Source: Escherichia coli (lineage in GTDB: Bacteria; Pseudomonadota; Gammaproteobacteria; Enterobacterales; Enterobacteriaceae). Taken from it: a stretch of DNA of 64,000 bases. The translations under genes were made by a program, and so were the position numbers. Below are positions 23,940-62,895 of this stretch, piece by piece (position 1 is the stretch's first letter; every line of letters begins with the position of its first letter). The stretch lies in NCBI RefSeq assembly GCF_044324875.1, contig NZ_CP172185.1. One strand, given 5' to 3'. Below the pieces are notes generated by a model. It saw only the letters and a program-made list of their open reading frames with translations, was not told the origin of the DNA and searched no databases.

Positions 23940-24302
23940 ATGTTAAATATATTTGCAAGGTACACCTCGATTGGTGTGCTGAACACACTTATACACTGGG
24001 TGGTTTTTGGTGTATGTATCTATGCCGCGCATACCAATCAGGCTCTGGCAAACTTCGCAGGTTTCGTTGTGGCTGTGAGTTTTAGCTTCTTCGCGAATGC
24101 AAAATTCACATTCAAAGCATCAACTACAACGATGCGCTACATGTTATATGTCGGGTTCATGGGAACACTGAGTGCTACTGTTGGATGGGCTGCTGATAGA
24201 TGCGCACTTCCCCCGATGATAACTCTTGTCACCTTCTCCGCCATCAGCCTGGTGTGCGGTTTCGTCTATTCAAAGTTCATTGTCTTTAGGGATGCGAAAT
24301 GA
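23940..24302 (+). CDS. gtrA: Bactoprenol-linked glucose translocase (flippase) GtrA
   Basis: 120 aa, four hydrophobic segments; first gene of a three-gene gtr cassette. Confidence 0.8.
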
Positions 24303-25228
24303 AAATTTCTTTAGTCGTTCCGGTCTTTAACGAAGAGGCCACGATACCTATTTTTTATAAAACCGTGCGCGAATTTGAAGGGCTTCAGCAGCATGAAGTC
24401 GAGATAGTCTTCATAAACGATGGCAGCAAAGACGCTACAGAATCAATTATCAACGAGCTTGCTGTTGCCGACCCGCTTGTGGTTTCGCTGTCGTTCACAC
24501 GTAACTTCGGCAAAGAACCCGCCCTGTTCGCAGGTCTGGACCATGCTACCGGGGAGGCAATTATCCCGATTGACGTTGATCTGCAAGACCCTATCGAAGT
24601 TATTCCTCACTTGATAGAGAAATGGCAGGCCGGTGCAGATATGGTTCTGGCTAAACGCTCTGACCGCTCCACTGACAGCAGGCTGAAGCGTAAATCTGCT
24701 GAGTGGTTCTATAAACTTCATAACAAAATCAGCAACCCTCAGATAGAAGAGAATGTTGGCGACTTCCGGCTCATGTCTCGCGAAGTAGTAGAAAATATTA
24801 AGCTCATGCCAGAACGAAACCTGTTTATGAAGGGTGTGCTGAGCTGGGTTGGTGGTCGAACCGATGTCGTAGAATATGCGCGAGCAGAACGCGTTGCAGG
24901 AAGCACAAAGTTCAATGGATGGAAGCTATGGAACTTGGCGCTGGAAGGGATCACTAGCTTCTCAACATTCCCGCTTCGCATGTGGACCTATATTGGGTTA
25001 TTTATTGCATGTATATCATTTACATACGGTTCATGGATGATAATTGATAAATTAATTTTTGGTAATAATGTACCTGGATACCCTTCAATTCTTGTATCAA
25101 TATTGTTTCTTGGCGGCGTACAACTAATTGGTATTGGTGTACTTGGAGAGTACATAGGACGTATTTATATTGAAGTTAAGCAGCGCCCAAGATATGTTTT
25201 AAAGGATCAGAAAAATGATTGCAAATAA
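24299..25228 (+). CDS. gtrB: Bactoprenol glucosyltransferase GtrB (GT2 family)
   Basis: 309 aa; N-terminal GT2 domain with DxD-type motifs (NDGSKD, DVDLQD), C-terminal TM helices; 4-bp overlap with gtrA. Confidence 0.85.
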
Positions 25229-26702
25229 AAACAAAACACCTTTCCATTGGTTCTTGATATCTGTTTTTATATATTTCACCCCCATCATCATGGCAAATAT
25301 TCATTATGTAGATGATCAGGGAAGAGCTATATGGGGGTATACTGGATGGGCTAGGGATGGTAGACCTTTGGCTGAAATGTTGATGATTGCATTGAATTTC
25401 AACATGCACATAACGGACTTATTCCCATTTCCTGCAATATTATCAGTATTTTTGATATCTGTTTGCCTGTATTTTTTTAGCAGGATGTTTATATCGACAG
25501 ATAATAAATTTATTGGACTGTTGGTTCCTCTTGGTATTTTATCAAGCCCATTTTTAATTGAAAATGCAATGTATCGCTTTGATGTTTTACCGATGTTCAT
25601 AAGTATTGCATTGTCATTCTCAGTTGTAATATTTAATTTCAAAAAGACAATTTTAAATATTTCTTTTGCCGCCCTGTTAACATTATTTATATTGTCTATA
25701 TACCAAGCATCATTAAATTTCATGCTGGTTATTATTCTGTGTAAATATATTTACATGTACTTTAACTCAGATAGTAACAGACATCTATTAACTTACCTCA
25801 TAGAAAAGACGGTATCATTAGTTATAGGTGTTGCATTATATTTTTTGGTGGTTATTCCTTTATTTTTAACTGTTGTTGGGGACCCGGATCACCCATCAAT
25901 TAAAACTGAAGGCATTTTTTCAGTTATATATGAAAACTTAAAATTTTATCTTCATTCAATATCTAGTGGTATTTTTGGGGAATCAGGACGAGTTGCGTTT
26001 ATAGTAATATTTTTATTTTTCATTGCAATGACGACATTCATCGCGCTAAAGAAATCAATACCTAATAAAAGTATTACTGGTATTATTAATTTTTTAATTA
26101 CAATAACATCACCAGTAACAGCTTTGATATTGTCTTTTGCTACTCTATTACCACTTCAGCATCACATCGACGCCCCAAGAGTGATGATCGGTTTTTCTGC
26201 TACGATGTTGTTCTTATTCATGATTGTTTATCTTTTCTCGCGAGAAACAAAAAATTCAATAACATATATACTTGTAATTCCTCTGATTTATGTTTTTGGT
26301 TTTTTATGTTCATACACAAATGCAATGACAGAAGAAAAAAACATAACCACAGTTCTGTTTCATCAGATTAAAAATGATGCTTTCGAGTTAAGCGGAAAAA
26401 CAAATCAGATACTTATTTTTAATGGTAAAAAGAAAGACAATGATGTTTTTGTAAACGCACGAAATAATTACCCGTTAATATCTAGATTTTTCCCAGAGTA
26501 TTTCTATAATTGGGATTGGCCATTCCCTTATATGAATAGAGTTGGAGTTTACTTTAAACACCCTGGGAATACAAACATTGCAAGTGTGTTAAATGAAAAA
26601 ACCTTTTGCTCAACCGCAAAGATTAAAAGAGCATATGAATATAACTTATACTCATATGATGATATTATTGTAGTTGATTTTGACAAAAACATTTGTCAGT
26701 GA
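25215..26702 (+). CDS. Serotype-specific O-antigen glucosyltransferase (Gtr type-specific, polytopic)
   Basis: 495 aa, many TM segments, strongly AT-rich, third position of gtr cassette. Confidence 0.7.
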
Positions 26703-40981: not shown

Positions 40982-41668
40982 TTAGAAGTTCAGATTTTTC
41001 AGTGCATTCAGTGCAGAGCCCACATCCTCAGCGTCGCGCAGGGACAGTGCGCCATAGCCCCCGGCCATGAATGCTTTGGCCTGGGTACGGGAGAGTCCGA
41101 CATCACGCAGGACTCTTTCGATTTTTTTCTGTTCGGGGATTTCCCCGCGGGCCAGTGCGTTCTTGACGTCGCTGATCCGCGCCTCGTCGTTAGACGGGAA
41201 CGTCACCAGGCTGACTTCCCAGAGGTCGATTTCTTTCAGCAGAAAGGCTTCTTTGCTCCGGTCGTATTCCCAGTCTTTCAGGACATACCCAATAGAAAGG
41301 CCGGTTAACGAACCGGCCTTCATGTGTGCATGTGCGCGTTTTGCGAGGGGATCATCATCAATAAGCAACCGTCCCCTGACGTAAAGCCCGACATCGTCTT
41401 CCTTCATTTCGGTGTAAACACCGATGGGTTCATCCATGCGGTGCTGCCAGAGCAGCGCAGGTAACGCTTTTCTGTCACTCCACGCCCGCAGGGAAGCAGC
41501 AAATGCCCCGGACATCACCACATCATCGTGGCTGTCCTTTACACCAAAGACGGAGCCATACCCTTCAAACTCACCGGAGTCACTGACAGATTTCAGACTC
41601 AGCGGTACATCAAGACGTTGTTTCGTCTGCATTGGCGTTATCCTTCTGCTTACCGGCTTTACTGCCAT
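40982..41668 (-). CDS. Prohead maturation protease (HK97 family)
   Basis: 228 aa between portal and capsid. Confidence 0.8.
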   Translation of the reverse strand: MAVKPVSRRITPMQTKQRLDVPLSLKSVSDSGEFEGYGSVFGVKDSHDDVVMSGAFAASLRAWSDRKALPALLWQHRMDEPIGVYTEMKEDDVGLYVRGRLLIDDDPLAKRAHAHMKAGSLTGLSIGYVLKDWEYDRSKEAFLLKEIDLWEVSLVTFPSNDEARISDVKNALARGEIPEQKKIERVLRDVGLSRTQAKAFMAGGYGALSLRDAEDVGSALNALKNLNF

Positions 41669-42851
41669 CGGAGGGTTTCGTGGTCATGTTCATCGGTGTG
41701 AGATAGACATCCCCACCGGGACGCGGATTCATATCTTCCAGGTCGCGGCAGTCATTGGGAGAGTAAATTCCCCAGTTGATCCCGGTGGCGTAGGCTTCAA
41801 AACGGGACTTCATATCCCCGCGCAGTAACGCCCCGGCGTTAAATTTGGCGTAATAAACGCCCTGCTTACTTTTTCGTACCAGTCCGGTGTTGATCCGCTG
41901 TTCGATGCGGGTCAGATACGGCACCAGTGAATAGTTGATAAATCCCAGCCCCAGCTCTTCGATATTGTTGAAGGTGGCGCGATCGGTGTTCTGCACCATG
42001 TGCAACGGCACCCGGAACAGACGACAGATTTCTTCAAGCTGAAACTTGCGGGTTTCCAGGAACTGGCTGTCCTCGGCGTTCAGCGCCATCGACTTCCAGT
42101 CCAGCCCCATCTCAAGGATCATCGGGCGGTGAGCATTGCCAAGCCCGGTGTGACGCTCCTCAAAATCTTTCTTCAGGCGCTCATAAGCCTGATCTGACAG
42201 CGTCTGCTCTGTACGCAACACCCCCGACGTCACCGCGCCATTGCTGAACAGTCTGGCCCCGTGCTCTTCGGTCGCTGCCGCCAGCGATATTGCCTCGCGG
42301 GCATAGGCGACGGGATTCAGCCCCACCAGTCCGTCCAGCGTCAGCGTGCGCACATGCCAGATATCCTCCTGGCTCAGTACATCCGTGGAGCCATCCGGGA
42401 ATGTGACCTGATAGACCGGCTCCCAGCTACTGTTAAGCTTCGGTACCACACAACCGGGATCGACGGGCAGCAGTTCAGCCACTTCGCCAAATGCTTTCAC
42501 TTTGTAGGCGTAAAAATTTCCCCTCAGACACAGACAGGTGACCACCAGCTCCCAGAACTCCTGCGGCGTCATATAGCTATTGGGATGCGTGGAGATCAGT
42601 TTATGCAGACGTTCGCCGGTGGCTCTCTGCTTCAGGCTGCCGTTCAGGTGATACAGATTGCAGGGCAACATCCCGACCGACTCTGCCAGCACTCTGACGC
42701 AGGAAAAAACCGCCGTCAGTCGCATGGCTCGCTGACTGCTGATCTGCTTTCCGGTATAGGTGTCGTAGGACAACCCGATGGCATCCGCCAGCTCTGCTGG
42801 CGTGGTCACCGGTGCGTCACTTTTTCGTTGAAATAATCCCGAAAAGAACAC
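41610..42851 (-). CDS. Portal protein (HK97 family)
   Basis: 413 aa downstream of large terminase. Confidence 0.85.
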   Translation of the reverse strand: MFFSGLFQRKSDAPVTTPAELADAIGLSYDTYTGKQISSQRAMRLTAVFSCVRVLAESVGMLPCNLYHLNGSLKQRATGERLHKLISTHPNSYMTPQEFWELVVTCLCLRGNFYAYKVKAFGEVAELLPVDPGCVVPKLNSSWEPVYQVTFPDGSTDVLSQEDIWHVRTLTLDGLVGLNPVAYAREAISLAAATEEHGARLFSNGAVTSGVLRTEQTLSDQAYERLKKDFEERHTGLGNAHRPMILEMGLDWKSMALNAEDSQFLETRKFQLEEICRLFRVPLHMVQNTDRATFNNIEELGLGFINYSLVPYLTRIEQRINTGLVRKSKQGVYYAKFNAGALLRGDMKSRFEAYATGINWGIYSPNDCRDLEDMNPRPGGDVYLTPMNMTTKPSDGSKAGKQKDNANADETTS

Positions 42852-43044: not shown

Positions 43045-44778
43045 TTAAAGCGAGCGGATCCCATAGGACTCAATGTGGTCAGACAGCGTGTCTTCTTTCT
43101 CGTACAGCATGGCTCTGCCAACCGCCATAATCAGCGCAACTGCACCATCGATTTTGTTTTCCGCCTGCTCTTTGACGGGCTTCACCACATCATCGTTACC
43201 CGGAATGGTTTTGCCGACCACGTTGCCGATACACCAGGTCATGATGGGATTGCCATCATGATGAAAGCGCCCCGATTCAATTGCCGCTTCCAGCTCTTTC
43301 ATCGGGTCGGACATGTTGGTGTAGTTCTGAATGATAGTGATGGGGTTCAGGTCTTCATCAGCAAGGTCATGTGAGAGCCCGGTCGCCCCGAAGGGGTCGA
43401 TGGGTGACTCGCTGACCGGGCTGATTTTGTTCGCCGCTTTGGCCTCTTCGAGGATGTAGCGATAATCCACCTCCGCACCATCGGTAACGGTCAGAACGCC
43501 CATTTCCACCCATTTCTGAAAGCGTTCGGCTGTCCGGCGATCTTCATTTTTCTCGACGCTGTACACCGTGTCATACGGTACCCAGAAACGCGGGGCTACA
43601 CTGTAGTAATGCGTTTTACCGTCAATCTCGCGGGTATAAAGTCGCGCCATGCTGTTCATATCCAGTTTACGCGCCAGGTCAAAGGCCAGAATGCACGGCT
43701 GCCCCTCGAACTGCTCAAGGGACAGTGATTTATCCTCGCAGCTCTGCCAGCTCACCAGGTTGAAATACGCCGAACGCGCCGACACCCAGATATTGAGGTG
43801 TTTTGTTTTAAAGACGTTTGCCAGACGGGCGTTATTTTTCGCACGCTGCTGCTGACTTAACAAAAATTCGCGATAAACCGACACGCCAATATTTGGATTG
43901 GCTTTTTCCAGCACCTGCGGGTCGGTCCAGTCGTCACCTTCATCAACGGTATAGATGATCCCGAACAGTTCATCGTTAGGCACCGAGCCGTTGAGCATCT
44001 CGATGACTTCCCGCCGTTTGTCGTAGCACGGCCCCTCAATGTTGTACCCGGCGGCAGTGATAGCCCACATCAGTGGCTGACGTCGCGCCCCCATCCCGGT
44101 AAGCATCGTGGTGTAAAGCGCATCTGTGGCGTGCTCGTGATATTCATCCACCACCGCACAGTGGGGTGATGAACCATCACCGGGGTTACCGATCAGCGGT
44201 TCAAAACGCGCACCATCCTCCGGACGGTTCATGTTTGAGGCGTTAACCTCAATCCCGAACGCTTCCGTCAGCATGGGTGTGCGTTTACACATCAGTCTTG
44301 CCGGGCGAAAGACTTCCCATGCCTGTTTCTCTGTCGTGGCACCGGAATACACTTCCGCGCCGAACTCGTTATCACAGGCAAAACAATACAGGGCGACACC
44401 GGCAGAGATTGCCGATTTGCCGTTCTTACGGGGGATTTCGGTATACACCTCACGGAAGCGGCGCAGCCGGGAGCCTTTATTGACCCAGCCAAACGCGCAG
44501 CAGATCACAAAGAGCTGCCACGGCTCCAGCGTGATGGGCATCCTCTTAAATGCCCACTCACCCTTGGTGTGCGGCAACAGCTGAATAAATTTGGCGGCCC
44601 GTTCAGCCAGGTCCTTGTCGAAGCGGTAACGAAACGACTTACTTTTTTCCGCCATCAGGTCATCAAGATGGCGCTGGCAGGCCTGAATCACAAACTGGCA
44701 GGCCACAATCTTTCCGCGCACGACATCACGGGCATACTGATTGGCAGCATTTACGTTGGGGTAAGATTTCCGGCTCAT
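43045..44778 (-). CDS. Terminase large subunit
   Basis: 577 aa; N-terminal ATPase region and C-terminal nuclease region. Confidence 0.9.
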
Positions 44779-45278
44779 GATTCGATGATTTTCAGAAACG
44801 GGTTAGTGGTTTTCTTCTGCCCCGCCAGGCCAATCAGACGCTGACGGCTGCTGGGGTCGAGTCCGAGCATTGCCCCCGTGCTGCTCATCTCGGACTCCTG
44901 TTCTTTTTTGGCGGTCAGCTCCGGATTTTTGACCATGCCGCCCATTGCACCGGTGATGGTGTTGCCCTGTCTGGCAATATTTTTCACGGCACGTCGCCAG
45001 AACTCGTAGGCCACGCACCACCGCTCAAGCACCGCGAGGTCAGTCACGCACAGCAGGCCCTGACCGCAGAGTTCTTTAGTTGTCAGTTGCCACATGATCG
45101 TAGCGAGAGGGAGATCTTCTTCAGCGAACCACTCCGGTGGCTCAACACCTTTGATGGGCGTAAAAACAGGTTCATCTTTATTCAGGGCTCGCTTGCCGGG
45201 GTTTCCGGCCAGCGCCTTGCGCGCCGTTGGCTTGGGGCGACGCCCGGAACGCCCCGCCGTTCCAGCCATATGCGGCAC
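44775..45278 (-). CDS. Terminase small subunit
   Basis: 167 aa; overlaps terL start; basic N-terminus. Confidence 0.75.
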
Positions 45279-45319
45279 TCCTGGTTAAATTTCATTTTTC
45301 GCGGGTATAAAAAAACGAT

Positions 45320-45372
45320 GGGGCGGGCAGTCCGGAAGACGTCAGGTCACAGAGATTTGACCCGCCCCTCCC
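45320..45372. other. Candidate cos site region upstream of terminase small subunit gene
   Basis: G/C-rich inverted repeat ggggcggg ... cccgcccc with ~33 bp between, located between the HNH and terS genes. Confidence 0.3.
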
Positions 45373-45394
45373 CTCAGACAGTTGAGAGTTATTA

Positions 45395-45745
45395 TCACTT
45401 AAGCCGTTCACGGGCCGTCTTCGCCTTATGGCACGGCCAGCACAGACTCTGCATATTACTGTCGGCATCAGTGCCACCATGTGCTTTAGGGATGATGTGG
45501 TCAACGGTTTTCGCTTCACGCGCCACACCAGCACGCAGACATAACTGACACAGGCCTTTGTCACGTTGCAGCACACGCACACGGATAACATCCCACTTAG
45601 AACCATAACCGCGCTGATGACGGGATTGTCCAGGTTTGTATTGCTTCCAGCCTTCGCTTTTGTGGCTTTCGCAGTAGCCTGAAGGGTCCGTGGTTGTAGA
45701 GCGGCAGCCGCGAACACGGCAGGCTTTTGGGGTTCGTGGGGGCAT
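45395..45745 (-). CDS. HNH endonuclease (terminase-associated)
   Basis: 116 aa; Cys pairs plus HxxxxxH-type motif (DHIIPKAHGG...CWPCH); immediately upstream of terS. Confidence 0.85.
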   Translation of the reverse strand: MPPRTPKACRVRGCRSTTTDPSGYCESHKSEGWKQYKPGQSRHQRGYGSKWDVIRVRVLQRDKGLCQLCLRAGVAREAKTVDHIIPKAHGGTDADSNMQSLCWPCHKAKTARERLK

Positions 45746-45876
45746 CCAATCACCTCTTAAATTATTACTATAGTTCTATCTATAACTTCGCAAATAAAAA
45801 TACCGGAGAACTAATCATCAAAAAAGATAATTAGTTCAACCAGCATTAATAATATGGAATATCCAGACAATCTATT

Positions 45877-46332
45877 TCATTTTAAATCTATATATAACAT
45901 TTTCCCTGCAAGCAAGGCCAATTCTGATTTAAAACCCTTTCCGGCCAAGAAAGCCATTTGAAGTTCTCGTAAATTATCCATGGTTTTAGAAATATCATCA
46001 TTTGAGTTAGATGATAGATAAATATTGCACCTAGATTGCAATTCATTAAAGGCTCTGATAATCAACTTTCTATTAACATAACCTTCATCATTTTCTAAAT
46101 TCTTTGGCATAGAAATCAAAGTATTATTATACTCAATGATAGCATCCATCAATTTCAATTTTTTGTCTTCATTATACTGTTTTTTCCATTGCCCTAATGC
46201 GAGAAAACCCACAATCCCTGCGAACAAAGTAACTCCAATACTCGCCAGACTCACAAGAGCAGAAAATTTAGCCCAAAATGCAGCATCTCTGTTAGCTACA
46301 AGAGTTTCATAAGCAATATAAGTAGCGTCCAT
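45877..46332 (-). CDS. Hypothetical membrane-anchored protein (cargo gene A1)
   Basis: 151 aa; single N-terminal TM helix; strong SD (gaggtg) 4-5 nt upstream of ATG; AT-rich; no recognisable family. Confidence 0.55.
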   Translation of the reverse strand: MDATYIAYETLVANRDAAFWAKFSALVSLASIGVTLFAGIVGFLALGQWKKQYNEDKKLKLMDAIIEYNNTLISMPKNLENDEGYVNRKLIIRAFNELQSRCNIYLSSNSNDDISKTMDNLRELQMAFLAGKGFKSELALLAGKMLYIDLK

Positions 46333-46451
46333 TTACACCTCACTTTATTTTAGAGGTGATTATAGCAAATTACATTCAATCAGGGCTGTACAGTTTTTTA
46401 TCAATTATACTTCGCCATCTCGCTATTATATAACAATATCTTTACATATTG

Positions 46452-47078
46452 ATGGCGTGCCAGCACAATACTGTCACGTACAACCATTCGGATTACTCAG
46501 AGAAAAGTATGATTCAGGATTTACTGATCGAAGCAATTAGTCACGATAGGATGCATAAAAAGTTAAATGAACTGAATTGCTACTTCTACAATCGCAAACA
46601 TGAAACACAAATACGTGATGAGTTAGTTGTTATAATCAATCAAATCAGCACACTAACTGCTTTAAGTGAGCATCCAAAACTCGGTATCGGCGCTGTTGAC
46701 ATATCACTTTATAACCAGTCGATATTGACGCCTGAACATAATGGCAATGTTGCAACCATCGAGATAAAACATCATTACCCAAAAGATTTGCTTTATCGGC
46801 AGGTTCAAGAAGATATCACTTCCGATATTTCAAGAGTAATAGTTTCACCAACTACACACTTTATCCATATAATCCAGCAAAGAACCAGAATTAAAACTCC
46901 TTCTTTTGGTCAAGTGAAATTCCTTGAACGTGATGCAAGTGATATCAGCACTTATGTGCAATATCTTGAGGAGCTAAGTTCATTTCCCAGTAATTTTCAT
47001 AAAAAAAGTGTATGTATTGAGGTAATTGGTGAAATTATGTCGACATATACCTTTAACGTATATTCATTTGACAACTGA
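46452..47078 (+). CDS. Hypothetical protein (cargo gene A2), divergent from A1
   Basis: About 190-209 aa; ORF begins TTG 46449 / ATG 46452, alternative start ATG 46509 (MIQDLLIEAI...); AT-rich; no recognisable family. Confidence 0.5.
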   Translation: MACQHNTVTYNHSDYSEKSMIQDLLIEAISHDRMHKKLNELNCYFYNRKHETQIRDELVVIINQISTLTALSEHPKLGIGAVDISLYNQSILTPEHNGNVATIEIKHHYPKDLLYRQVQEDITSDISRVIVSPTTHFIHIIQQRTRIKTPSFGQVKFLERDASDISTYVQYLEELSSFPSNFHKKSVCIEVIGEIMSTYTFNVYSFDN

Positions 47079-47099
47079 TTAAACTGTCAATTTTATTGC

Positions 47100-47357
47100 T
47101 TAATGGTTAGTTCTCTCTGAATCTATTTTACGAATGTCAGCTTTATCTCGATTGCAGTTAGCCAGCGCAGACAACAGACTCACATTCAACTCCAGACTAG
47201 CACCATACGTCAGCGGATTAGGTATAAACGGTACAGGAGTATCAGAAGTCAGGCTGGCTGGCAGTGGTGCCACCGGAGCGCTCACGTAAACCGTCCGCGA
47301 ATTTCCGCAACCGGTCAGCAGCGGCAGCAGGCACATGACGTGAAGCACAATCATCAT
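47100..47357 (-). CDS. Rz1-like outer-membrane spanin (lipoprotein), overlapping Rz in another frame
   Basis: Internal Met of ORF 47100..47585 followed by lipobox LLTGC and Pro-rich mature part. Confidence 0.6.
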   Translation of the reverse strand: MMIVLHVMCLLPLLTGCGNSRTVYVSAPVAPLPASLTSDTPVPFIPNPLTYGASLELNVSLLSALANCNRDKADIRKIDSERTNH

Positions 47358-47634
47358 CCGTAACAGCCACTTTGATATCTTCCTGGGTTCTCTGTGACTC
47401 CAGTGCGATCTGCTGTTTTGCATGCTGGTTAGCCTCCAGAACTGTATTGACGATTTGTAGTGATTGCAGGACGTTATTGGTAATGGCAGTTGCTGATTCA
47501 GCATTTCGTACAGCCTCATCAGCACGTTTCTTTTCGTACTGATATTTGCTGTAGTAGTGGTTGGCTGACCAGATGAAAGAACCAATGACAGTAACGAAGA
47601 AAGCAGCGATAACCAGCTTATAGCTCAACTTCAT
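47242..47634 (-). CDS. Rz-like inner-membrane spanin
   Basis: 130 aa; N-terminal TM helix then coiled coil; downstream of endolysin. Confidence 0.75.
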   Translation of the reverse strand: MKLSYKLVIAAFFVTVIGSFIWSANHYYSKYQYEKKRADEAVRNAESATAITNNVLQSLQIVNTVLEANQHAKQQIALESQRTQEDIKVAVTDDDCASRHVPAAAADRLRKFADGLRERSGGTTASQPDF

Positions 47635-61628: not shown

Positions 61629-61847
61629 ATGTACTTGACACTTCAGGAGTGGAACGCTCGCCAGCGACGCCCAAGAAGCCTTGAAACAGTTCGTCGATGG
61701 GTGCGCGAATGCAGGATATTCCCTCCTCCGGTTAAGGATGGAAGAGAGTATCTGTTCCACGAATCAGCGGTAAAGGTTGACTTAAATCGACCAGTAACAG
61801 GTAGCCTTTTGAAGAGGATCAGAAATGGGAAGAAGGCGAAGTCATGA
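61629..61847 (+). CDS. xis: Excisionase Xis (lambda type)
   Basis: 72 aa from ATG 61629 (MYLTLQEWNARQRRPRSLETVRRWVRECRIFPPPVKDGREYLFHESAVKVDLNRPVTGSLLKRIRNGKKAKS), matching lambda Xis; overlaps int start. Confidence 0.9.
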   Translation: MYLTLQEWNARQRRPRSLETVRRWVRECRIFPPPVKDGREYLFHESAVKVDLNRPVTGSLLKRIRNGKKAKS

Positions 61848-62895
61848 GCGCCGGGATTTACCCCCTAACCTTTATATAAGAAACAATGGATATTACTGCT
61901 ACAGGGACCCAAGGACGGGTAAAGAGTTCGGATTAGGCAGAGACAGGAGGATAGCAATTACTGAAGCAATACAGGCAAACATTGAGTTATTTTCAGGACA
62001 CAAACACAAGCCTCTGACAGCGAGAATCAACAGTGATAATTCTGTTACGTTACATTCATGGCTTGATCGCTACGAAAAAATCCTCGCCAGCAGAGGAATC
62101 AAGCAGAAGACACTTATAAATTACATGAGCAAAATTAAAGCAATAAGGAGGGGGCTACCTGATGTTCCACTTGAAGACATCACCACAAAAGAAATTGCAG
62201 CAATGCTCAATGGATACATAGACGAGGGCAAGGCGGCGTCAGCCAAGTTAATCAGATCAACACTGAGCGATGCATTCCGAGAGGCAATAGCTGAAGGCCA
62301 TATAACAACAAACCCGGTCGCTGCCACTCGCGCAGCAAAATCAGAGGTAAGGAGATCAAGACTTACGGCTGACGAATACCTGAAAATTTATCAAGCAGCA
62401 GAATCATCACCATGTTGGCTTAGACTTGCAATGGAACTGGCTGTTGTTACCGGGCAGCGAGTTGGTGATTTATGCGAAATGAAGTGGTCTGATATCGTAG
62501 ATGGATATCTTTATGTCGAGCAAAGCAAAACAGGCGTAAAAATTGCCATCCCAACAGCATTGCATGTTGATGCTCTCGGAATATCAATGAAGGAAACACT
62601 TGATAAATGCAAAGAGATTCTTGGCGGAGAAACCATAATTGCATCTACTCGTCGCGAACCGCTTTCATCCGGCACAGTATCAAGGTATTTTATGCGCGCA
62701 CGAAAAGCATCAGGTCTTTCCTTCGAAGGGGATCCGCCTACCTTTCACGAGTTGCGCAGTTTGTCTGCAAGACTCTATGAGAAGCAGATAAGCGATAAGT
62801 TTGCTCAACATCTTCTCGGGCATAAGTCGGACACCATGGCATCACAGTATCGTGATGACAGAGGCAGGGAGTGGGACAAAATTGAAATCAAATAA
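61825..62895 (+). CDS. int: Integrase Int (lambda-type tyrosine recombinase)
   Basis: 356 aa, essentially lambda Int (MGRRRSHERRDLPPNLYIRNNGYYCYRDPRTGKEF... with R-H-R-Y catalytic residues); adjacent to the gal-proximal att core. Confidence 0.95.
   Translation: MGRRRSHERRDLPPNLYIRNNGYYCYRDPRTGKEFGLGRDRRIAITEAIQANIELFSGHKHKPLTARINSDNSVTLHSWLDRYEKILASRGIKQKTLINYMSKIKAIRRGLPDVPLEDITTKEIAAMLNGYIDEGKAASAKLIRSTLSDAFREAIAEGHITTNPVAATRAAKSEVRRSRLTADEYLKIYQAAESSPCWLRLAMELAVVTGQRVGDLCEMKWSDIVDGYLYVEQSKTGVKIAIPTALHVDALGISMKETLDKCKEILGGETIIASTRREPLSSGTVSRYFMRARKASGLSFEGDPPTFHELRSLSARLYEKQISDKFAQHLLGHKSDTMASQYRDDRGREWDKIEIK

Follow-up and report, generated by a model that had tools for sequence, protein, structure and literature searches.

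A very probable SfI-type cohesive-end site in an SfV/SfI-like prophage of Escherichia coli, with a conserved box at fixed spacing upstream

Among the closest described systems is the Shigella phage SfI, for which direct run-off sequencing of the ends of virion DNA revealed a 10-nt gap relative to the prophage, 5′-TGCCCGCCCC-3′ (Sun et al. 2013, PMC3636060). The SfI authors concluded that the phage uses a cos packaging mechanism and termed the cos of SfV "postulated" (PMC3636060); the cos of the SfV-type relatives is also treated by Jakhetia et al. 2013 (PMC3851460). In the papers on SfI and SfIV, the two are classed as lambdoid phages that package their DNA in a lambda-like way (PMC3636060, PMC3851460). 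Two further relatives carry information on their ends: the record of the Stx2e phage phiP27 (AJ298298) contains a misc_feature "cos-site", and the genome of Edwardsiella phage EPP-1 was corrected with PhageTerm (PMC11043334). The ends of HK97 are 10-nt 3′ overhangs, and cleavage of its cos is stimulated by gp74 (PMC11331095, PMC9410871). HK97 TerS binds from +15 to +29 relative to the cut, at a C:G pair at position 21 and an A-tract (PMC11331095). When the ends of the HK97 record are joined, the sequence reads ...GGGCAGGGGGGGGGATCAAATCTTCAAAACCTTTGCCCCAAATGAC CGCCGCCAAA up to the junction and GTTTGAATTTAACGCTAACCCGATTTTTTTAG after it; the records of the HK97 group end either after CGCCGCCAAA or 10 nt before it.

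The prophage in the 64-kb window (the whole stretch of DNA analyzed) is an SfV/SfI-like serotype-converting prophage, the packaging module of which is 97–99% identical to those of the Shigella phages SfV, SfII, SfIV, and SfI. Glucosyltransferase genes at one end and an integrase gene at the other place the prophage at roughly 24–63 kb of the window (Table 1). It looks complete, with intact open reading frames for HNH, TerS, TerL, portal, capsid, and sheath, and with an integrase. Unlike SfI, SfV, SfII, and SfIV, the window holds an E. coli-type prophage whose additional cargo comprises a Kiwa system as well as 1.5 kb of low-GC DNA inserted between Rz and the HNH gene. The Kiwa anti-phage defense system (window 48756–50167, plus strand) lies inside the prophage on an island with a GC content of 0.34 that is flanked by a DUF968 gene and a holin. 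The second low-GC island (GC about 0.35) occupies window 45750–47240, between Rz (47242–47634) and the HNH gene; its open reading frames of 151 and 209 amino acids gave no Pfam or PADLOC match. Because the HNH gene of SfV starts only 27 nt after Rz1, this island represents extra cargo ∼400 nt upstream of cos. Of 5426 complete E. coli genomes, 1119 contain the 181-nt cos region (45240–45420), in at most 4 copies per genome, and 13 of its places are on plasmids.

Open reading frames and Pfam matches put the site immediately upstream of terS-terL-portal and downstream of the packaging HNH gene, all on the minus strand. TerL aligns with HK97 gp2 at 25% identity over 522 positions (E 5e-29), and the HNH protein is 40% identical to HK97 gp74 over 65 amino acids (E 6e-11) and also matches PDB entry 5h0m, "HNH endonuclease" (E 1.3e-11). 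The initial annotation, made from the letters of the window, had assigned this module to the HK97 type, which these homologies and the TerL domains bear out. It had also set the left limit of the intergenic region at 45279. That limit agrees with a GTG start in the list of open reading frames; the likelier start of terS is the ATG at 45269, which stands behind an AGGAG and agrees with the annotation of SfV and SfI.

Table 1. Features of the packaging region and the prophage. Positions relative to the cut are counted on the minus strand, the cohesive-end 10-mer being −10 to −1.
Feature	Window position	Relative to cut	Strand	Remarks
glucosyltransferases, gtr-type (GT2 GtrB-like enzyme and GtrII-type)	24299-26702		+	low-GC stretch; serotype-conversion cargo
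portal gene, HK97 family	41610-42851		-	PF04860, E 4e-108
TerL gene, HK97 type	43045-44778		-	PF03354 and PF20441
TerS gene, P27 family	44775-45269		-	PF05119 Terminase_4, E 2.2e-21
terS ribosome-binding site AGGAG	45282-45278		-	
downstream block	45285-45319	+1 to +35	-	cosB-like; predicted TerS binding region
(G/A)TC		+1 to +3		mostly conserved
ATCG, T7 tract, ATA	T7 45315-45309		-	within downstream block
ACCCGCG	45306-45300		-	within downstream block
A5	45299-45295		-	within downstream block
TGAAATTTAA	45294-45285		-	within downstream block
cohesive-end 10-mer TGCCCGCCCC	45320-45329	-10 to -1	- (45329-45320)	cosN equivalent; identical to SfI mapped end; C-rich, YGCC(C/G)GCC.., conserved
terS-side dyad arm GGGGCGGG	45320-45327		+	within 45320-45329; cohesive end minus 2 nt
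left flank of cut TTCCGGAC	45330-45337		-	GAC at 45332-45330
GAC	45332-45330	-13 to -11	-	C at -11 in 13/13; A at -12 in 12/13
spacer	45338-45350	about -31 to -19	-	sequence variable, length constant (close variants and representatives)
upstream box	45351-45373	-54 to -32	-	columns nearly invariant in 13 representatives including HK97
TCAAATCTCT	45360-45351	-41 to -32	-	TCAAATC element
G-run GGGGAGGGGCGGG	45373-45361	-54 to -42	-	nearly invariant; holds HNH-side arm
HNH-side dyad arm CCCGCCCC	45361-45368			last 8 nt of G-run, upstream box
HNH endonuclease gene	45395-45745		-	gp74-like packaging accessory nuclease; PF01844, E 1.6e-15
island ORF, 151 aa	45877-46332		-	
island ORF, 209 aa	46449-47078		+	
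KwaA	48756-49277		+	PADLOC E 1.9e-83
KwaB	49283-50167		+	PADLOC E 2.3e-150; Pfam PF16162
lambda-type integrase	61825-62895		+	

Read on the minus strand, the region is ...GAGGGGAGGGGCGGGTCAAATCTCTGTGACCTGACGTCTTCCGGAC TGCCCGCCCC ATCGTTTTTTTATACCCGCGAAAAATGAAATTTAACCAGGAGTGCCGCATATG, and its agreement with SfI is nearly complete. From −54 to −1 and from +2 to +45 the two sequences are identical, the sole difference being +1 (A here, G in SfI), and the likeness thus extends over gene order, the 10-mer, the upstream box with its spacer, and the downstream block except for +1. The SfI record has TGCCCGCCCC as its last 10 nt and starts with the base directly after the 10-mer. The phiP27 record has a homologous 10-mer, CGCCCGCCCC, at the homologous position, and in the EPP-1 record, TGCCCGCCTC forms the last 10 nt and the first base corresponds to +1; TerL of EPP-1 is 91% identical to TerL of the window. 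SfI, phiP27, and EPP-1 are three independent lines that point to one cohesive-end position. We conclude that the region is very probably the cos site of an SfV/SfI/P27-like prophage whose DNA would be packaged in the HK97 manner, with its ends and its activity transferred from these relatives. A cos site between the HNH gene and terS was what the initial annotation had suggested, and the mapped SfI end together with the homologous phiP27 and EPP-1 ends upholds it. Since the cut sequence is identical to the one mapped in SfI, this cos site is already known, namely the published SfI/SfV/P27 cos, and is real but ordinary.

The gap, as opposed to an overlap, in both run-off reads of SfI suggests recessed 5′ ends and hence 3′ overhangs, and taken together with HK97 it makes 3′ polarity of the 10-nt ends probable. 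After induction, the terminase (TerS and TerL) with the HNH nuclease would cut concatemeric DNA by staggered nicks, predicted between 45320 and 45319 on the minus strand and between 45329 and 45330 on the plus strand. The products would be 10-nt 3′ cohesive ends, TGCCCGCCCC and its complement GGGGCGGGCA. The proposed site has three parts: the cut with its twofold-symmetric flanks GAC-N10-(G/A)TC, the downstream block for TerS, and the upstream G-run/TCAAATC box. The records of SfV (U82619), SfIV (KC814930), and VIT_AJPSC (OR799564) are linearized 7 bp upstream of this position, between window 45337 and 45336, where GACGTCT is parted from TCCGGAC. As this point is 7 bp off the cohesive end mapped in SfI, the first and last bases of these three records are probably not physical ends.

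The possibility that the site is a relic, carried by a prophage that is defective or packages by the headful mechanism so that the sequence is no longer a cos, is unlikely. Prophages of this kind are very common, as the 1119 genomes with the cos region illustrate, and many such prophages are defective. Nevertheless, the cos elements match those of the plaque-forming SfI in both stretches of identity given above, the open reading frames from HNH through TerS, TerL, portal, and capsid to sheath are intact next to an integrase, and the type of TerL as well as the defined ends of the relatives argue against headful packaging.

For a wider comparison, an ungapped alignment anchored at the cut, as mapped or annotated, was made of 13 representatives: the window, SfI, 118970_sal3, F1055, P27, EPP-1, Klebsiella ST101-KPC2phi6.3, phi467, Burkholderia vB_E174, Pseudomonas PARCL1pr, HK97, and two IMG/VR variants, a set that is phylogenetically non-independent. 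Complementarity of the flanks GAC-N10-GTC peaks exactly where the stagger was mapped (10 nt), at 24 of 39 cells; other offsets reach 1–13 of 39. GAC before and GTC after the 10-mer are reverse complements of each other, so that each strand would be nicked just 5′ of GTC.

Variation at close range was drawn from a TerS query of IMG/VR, which returned relatives at 99–100% identity only and informs on micro-variation, not on deep conservation. Across the 49 distinct variants with 99–100% identical TerS, hardly any variation is seen from TTCCGGAC rightwards. On the left side of TTCCGGAC, the spacer, the G-run, and the 3′ end of the HNH gene occur in three or more alleles, for example GGGGGAGG-TCAAATCTCTGCGACCGCGCGCC. 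A recombination mosaic boundary thus lies at cos (window 45330–45400; loci L011–L090).

The feature that had originally drawn attention to this region was a G/C-rich dyad between the HNH gene and terS with ∼33 bp between its arms. The observation itself is accurate. On the plus strand, GGGGCGGG pairs 8/8 with CCCGCCCC at a distance of 33 nt, as found by repeat search, and the pattern GGGGCGGG-N20-50-CCCGCCCC occurs once in the 64-kb window and in 0 of 100 dinucleotide-preserving shuffles. The octamer by itself is unremarkable, with 4 copies versus 2.1 expected. The dyad is perfect in 41 of the 49 distinct close variants and reduced to 6/8 in the allele group with the G-run GGGGGAGG. In EPP-1, Klebsiella ST101, phi467, Burkholderia, PARCL1pr, and HK97, the arms pair at 3–5 of 8 positions, and in 26 divergent sites with the same layout they pair at 0–6 of 8 (median 2, among the matches listed). 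Many of the 10-mers at divergent sites are G-rich on the strand of the box, for instance CGGCGCGGGG, and those phages consequently have no dyad at all. Over the 13 representatives, arm pairing reaches 78.8% of cells; shuffling gives 78.5%, with 263 of 500 shuffles pairing at least as well, and there is no excess of covariation.

The dyad is therefore incidental: in this lineage, a G-rich box and a C-rich cohesive end happen to be complementary. Its arms belong to different elements, do not covary, and lose their pairing in distant relatives. As a recognition unit the dyad does not hold up, given that these relatives keep the layout with non-complementary arms, and the cut lies at the terS-proximal arm and not between the arms; in both points the initial annotation is to be corrected.

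The loss of the dyad in relatives also weakens a second explanation, according to which the inverted repeat would serve as a terminator of the lysis-HNH transcript or form some other RNA hairpin at its end. The transcribed minus strand does read GGGGCGGG...CCCGCCCC followed 4 nt later by the T7 run, and an RNA fold pairs the arms with a minimum free energy of −31.6 kcal/mol (z −1.93; 7 of 200 shuffles fold as well). Moreover, both arm substitutions of EPP-1 would retain G-U pairs. However, the loop measures 33 nt, a terminator scan called no site in 44500–46500, the arms show no covariation beyond shuffled alignments, and the T-run is retained in Klebsiella and PARCL1pr, where the arms are unpaired. 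No Rfam family or tRNA lies at the site: the Rfam covariance models gave a single chance-level match outside the element (E 7.4), ARAGORN found no tRNA at the site, and a promoter scan of the region returned nothing. With fold z-scores of −1.9 (RNA) and −1.1 (DNA), a hairpin or terminator was rejected as the main function, and we consider this explanation very unlikely.

Taking the region as a cos site of the HK97 manner, the downstream block would be its TerS-binding part. Every relative with a TerS of at least 43% identity retains the block (P27, PARCL1pr, Burkholderia vB_E174, EPP-1, and Klebsiella), and another sequence replaces it where TerS differs, that is, in phi467 (24%) and in F1055 and HK97 (no TerS match). 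These last three phages keep the upstream box, and their HNH proteins are related to that of the window (72–94% identity; 40% for HK97). The HK97 counterpart of the block occupies +19 to +31 and combines CCCG with a subsequent A/T tract. Because the block co-varies with the type of TerS and resembles the TerS site of HK97, we predict with moderate confidence that TerS binds ACCCGCG and the A/T tracts from +14 to +35 in an HK97-like fashion.

The predicted model of the window TerS has HK97 TerS bound to DNA as its best structural match. The basic N-terminal arm is disordered in this model; its counterpart in HK97 TerS reaches into contact with the minor groove of the DNA. In EPP-1 TerS (L091 48-653), this basic arm is tandemly duplicated, with ELAGNPGKR(A/T)LNK...PPEWF occurring twice, and the protein has 201 amino acids as compared with 164 in the window TerS.

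PhiP27, whose TerS and HNH are 49% and 78% identical to those of the window, has the G-run/TCAAATC box 41 nt upstream, a perfect 8-bp dyad, and the ACCCGCG and A/T block, but differs in the first base of the 10-mer (C; T in the window), the sequence of the spacer, and an A3T5 in place of T7. HK97 shares the order HNH-cos-terS-terL-portal, the homologous TerL and HNH, the G-run and TCAAATC at exactly −41, GAC before and GT after a C-rich 10-mer, and a C/G step followed by an A/T tract downstream. It differs in that it has no dyad (3/8 pair), has CGCCGCCAAA as its 10-mer, and possesses a TerS without detectable sequence relation. In addition, its CCCG/A-tract motif is located 4 bp further from the cut, and the gap between HNH and the cut is 320 nt versus 75 nt here.

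Lambda cohesive ends are 12-nt 5′ overhangs. Lambda resembles the site in its tripartite organization, in that its G/C-rich core is nicked in a staggered way between a TerS site on the side that is packaged and an upstream element on the last-packaged side, and in its G-rich left end, whereas it differs in having another TerL family, no HNH partner, and IHF sites. The likeness of the G-rich start to the lambda end, which the initial annotation had pointed out, holds for base composition and fails for the ends themselves, with 10-nt, probably 3′, against 12-nt 5′ extensions and a TerL that is not of the gpA type. That the site is a lambda-type cosQ-cosN-cosB with a 12-nt 5′ overhang and IHF-assisted TerS binding is extremely unlikely, since against the resemblance of GGGGCGGGCA to the lambda start GGGCGGCGACCT and the lambda-like packaging ascribed to SfI and SfIV stand a TerL of the HK97 type (PF03354/PF20441, homologous to gp2), the adjoining HNH nuclease gene, a TerS of the P27 family, and the 10-nt gap of the relatives, which implies 3′ overhangs. 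The IHF consensus had no match within 1 mismatch in 45279–45394, and an IHF site in the TCAAATC box was likewise rejected at this threshold.

Within the HK97-type arrangement, the upstream box is strongly conserved. In all 13 representatives, including SfI, P27, and HK97, the distance from the start of its TCAAATC element to the end of the 10-mer is exactly 41 nt. The consensus from −41 to −32 is (T/G)(C/T/A)AAATC(T/C)CT, with A at −39 to −37 in 13/13; Burkholderia vB_E174 has a weak variant, GAAAAAGTCT, at the same spacing. The HK97-like phages in the phage collection are too alike to inform on the box. A scan of IMG/VR for GGGGNGGGTCAAATC, a set of sites chosen by the box motif itself, yielded at least 122 occurrences, and for 94 of the 122 matches listed, the same strand carries an HNH gene directly before the box, a TerL gene of the HK97 type directly after it, or both. 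At 26 distinct sites among the matches listed (HNH less than 60% identical to the queries), which lie on otherwise unrelated environmental phage contigs, GC is 0.73–1.00 at box positions 32–41, the predicted cohesive end, drops to 0.31 at box position 42, the predicted +1, and is followed by A/T-rich blocks. Box sites without a detectable HNH show a flat GC profile among the matches listed. The layout is common, not universal: in Vibrio phage pVa-2 (TerL 67.5% identical), only 6 nt separate HNH and terS, so its cos must lie elsewhere.

The box is almost unchanged across phages whose HNH proteins are only 27–53% identical and whose TerS are unrelated. It appears to travel with the HNH/TerL module, an association that could be partly simple physical linkage. 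The fixed spacing of 41 nt suggests a ruler-like or cosQ-like role, and we infer from sequence that the box is a cosQ-like or nuclease-positioning subsite that may position or trigger the nuclease. The protein that reads such a box would be TerL, the HNH nuclease, or the portal protein; in lambda, portal mutations are reported to suppress cosQ mutations. During termination, one may speculate, the box would enter the motor ∼31–41 bp ahead of the nick sites. No account of the box turned up in the literature on HK97 cos that was covered, a scope that leaves aside the original HK97, SfV, P27, and Kala et al. papers. Tentatively, then, the box may be an undescribed, widely conserved cos subsite of HNH-assisted HK97-type packaging that fixes the nick positions in a ruler- or cosQ-like manner; a conserved upstream box at fixed spacing is the sole point of this analysis that is possibly new.

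The packaging signal of this prophage thus appears intact and is of a standard kind, within a family that is very common. With the predicted ends, the termini of this prophage and of its relatives can be annotated to the exact base, also in the SfV-type records that are 7 bp off, and the site identifies a sequence that satellites or plasmids could borrow for packaging. If the upstream box is functional, it would be a missing element for the model of HK97 packaging, which now explains the choice of the cut by the downstream TerS site only.
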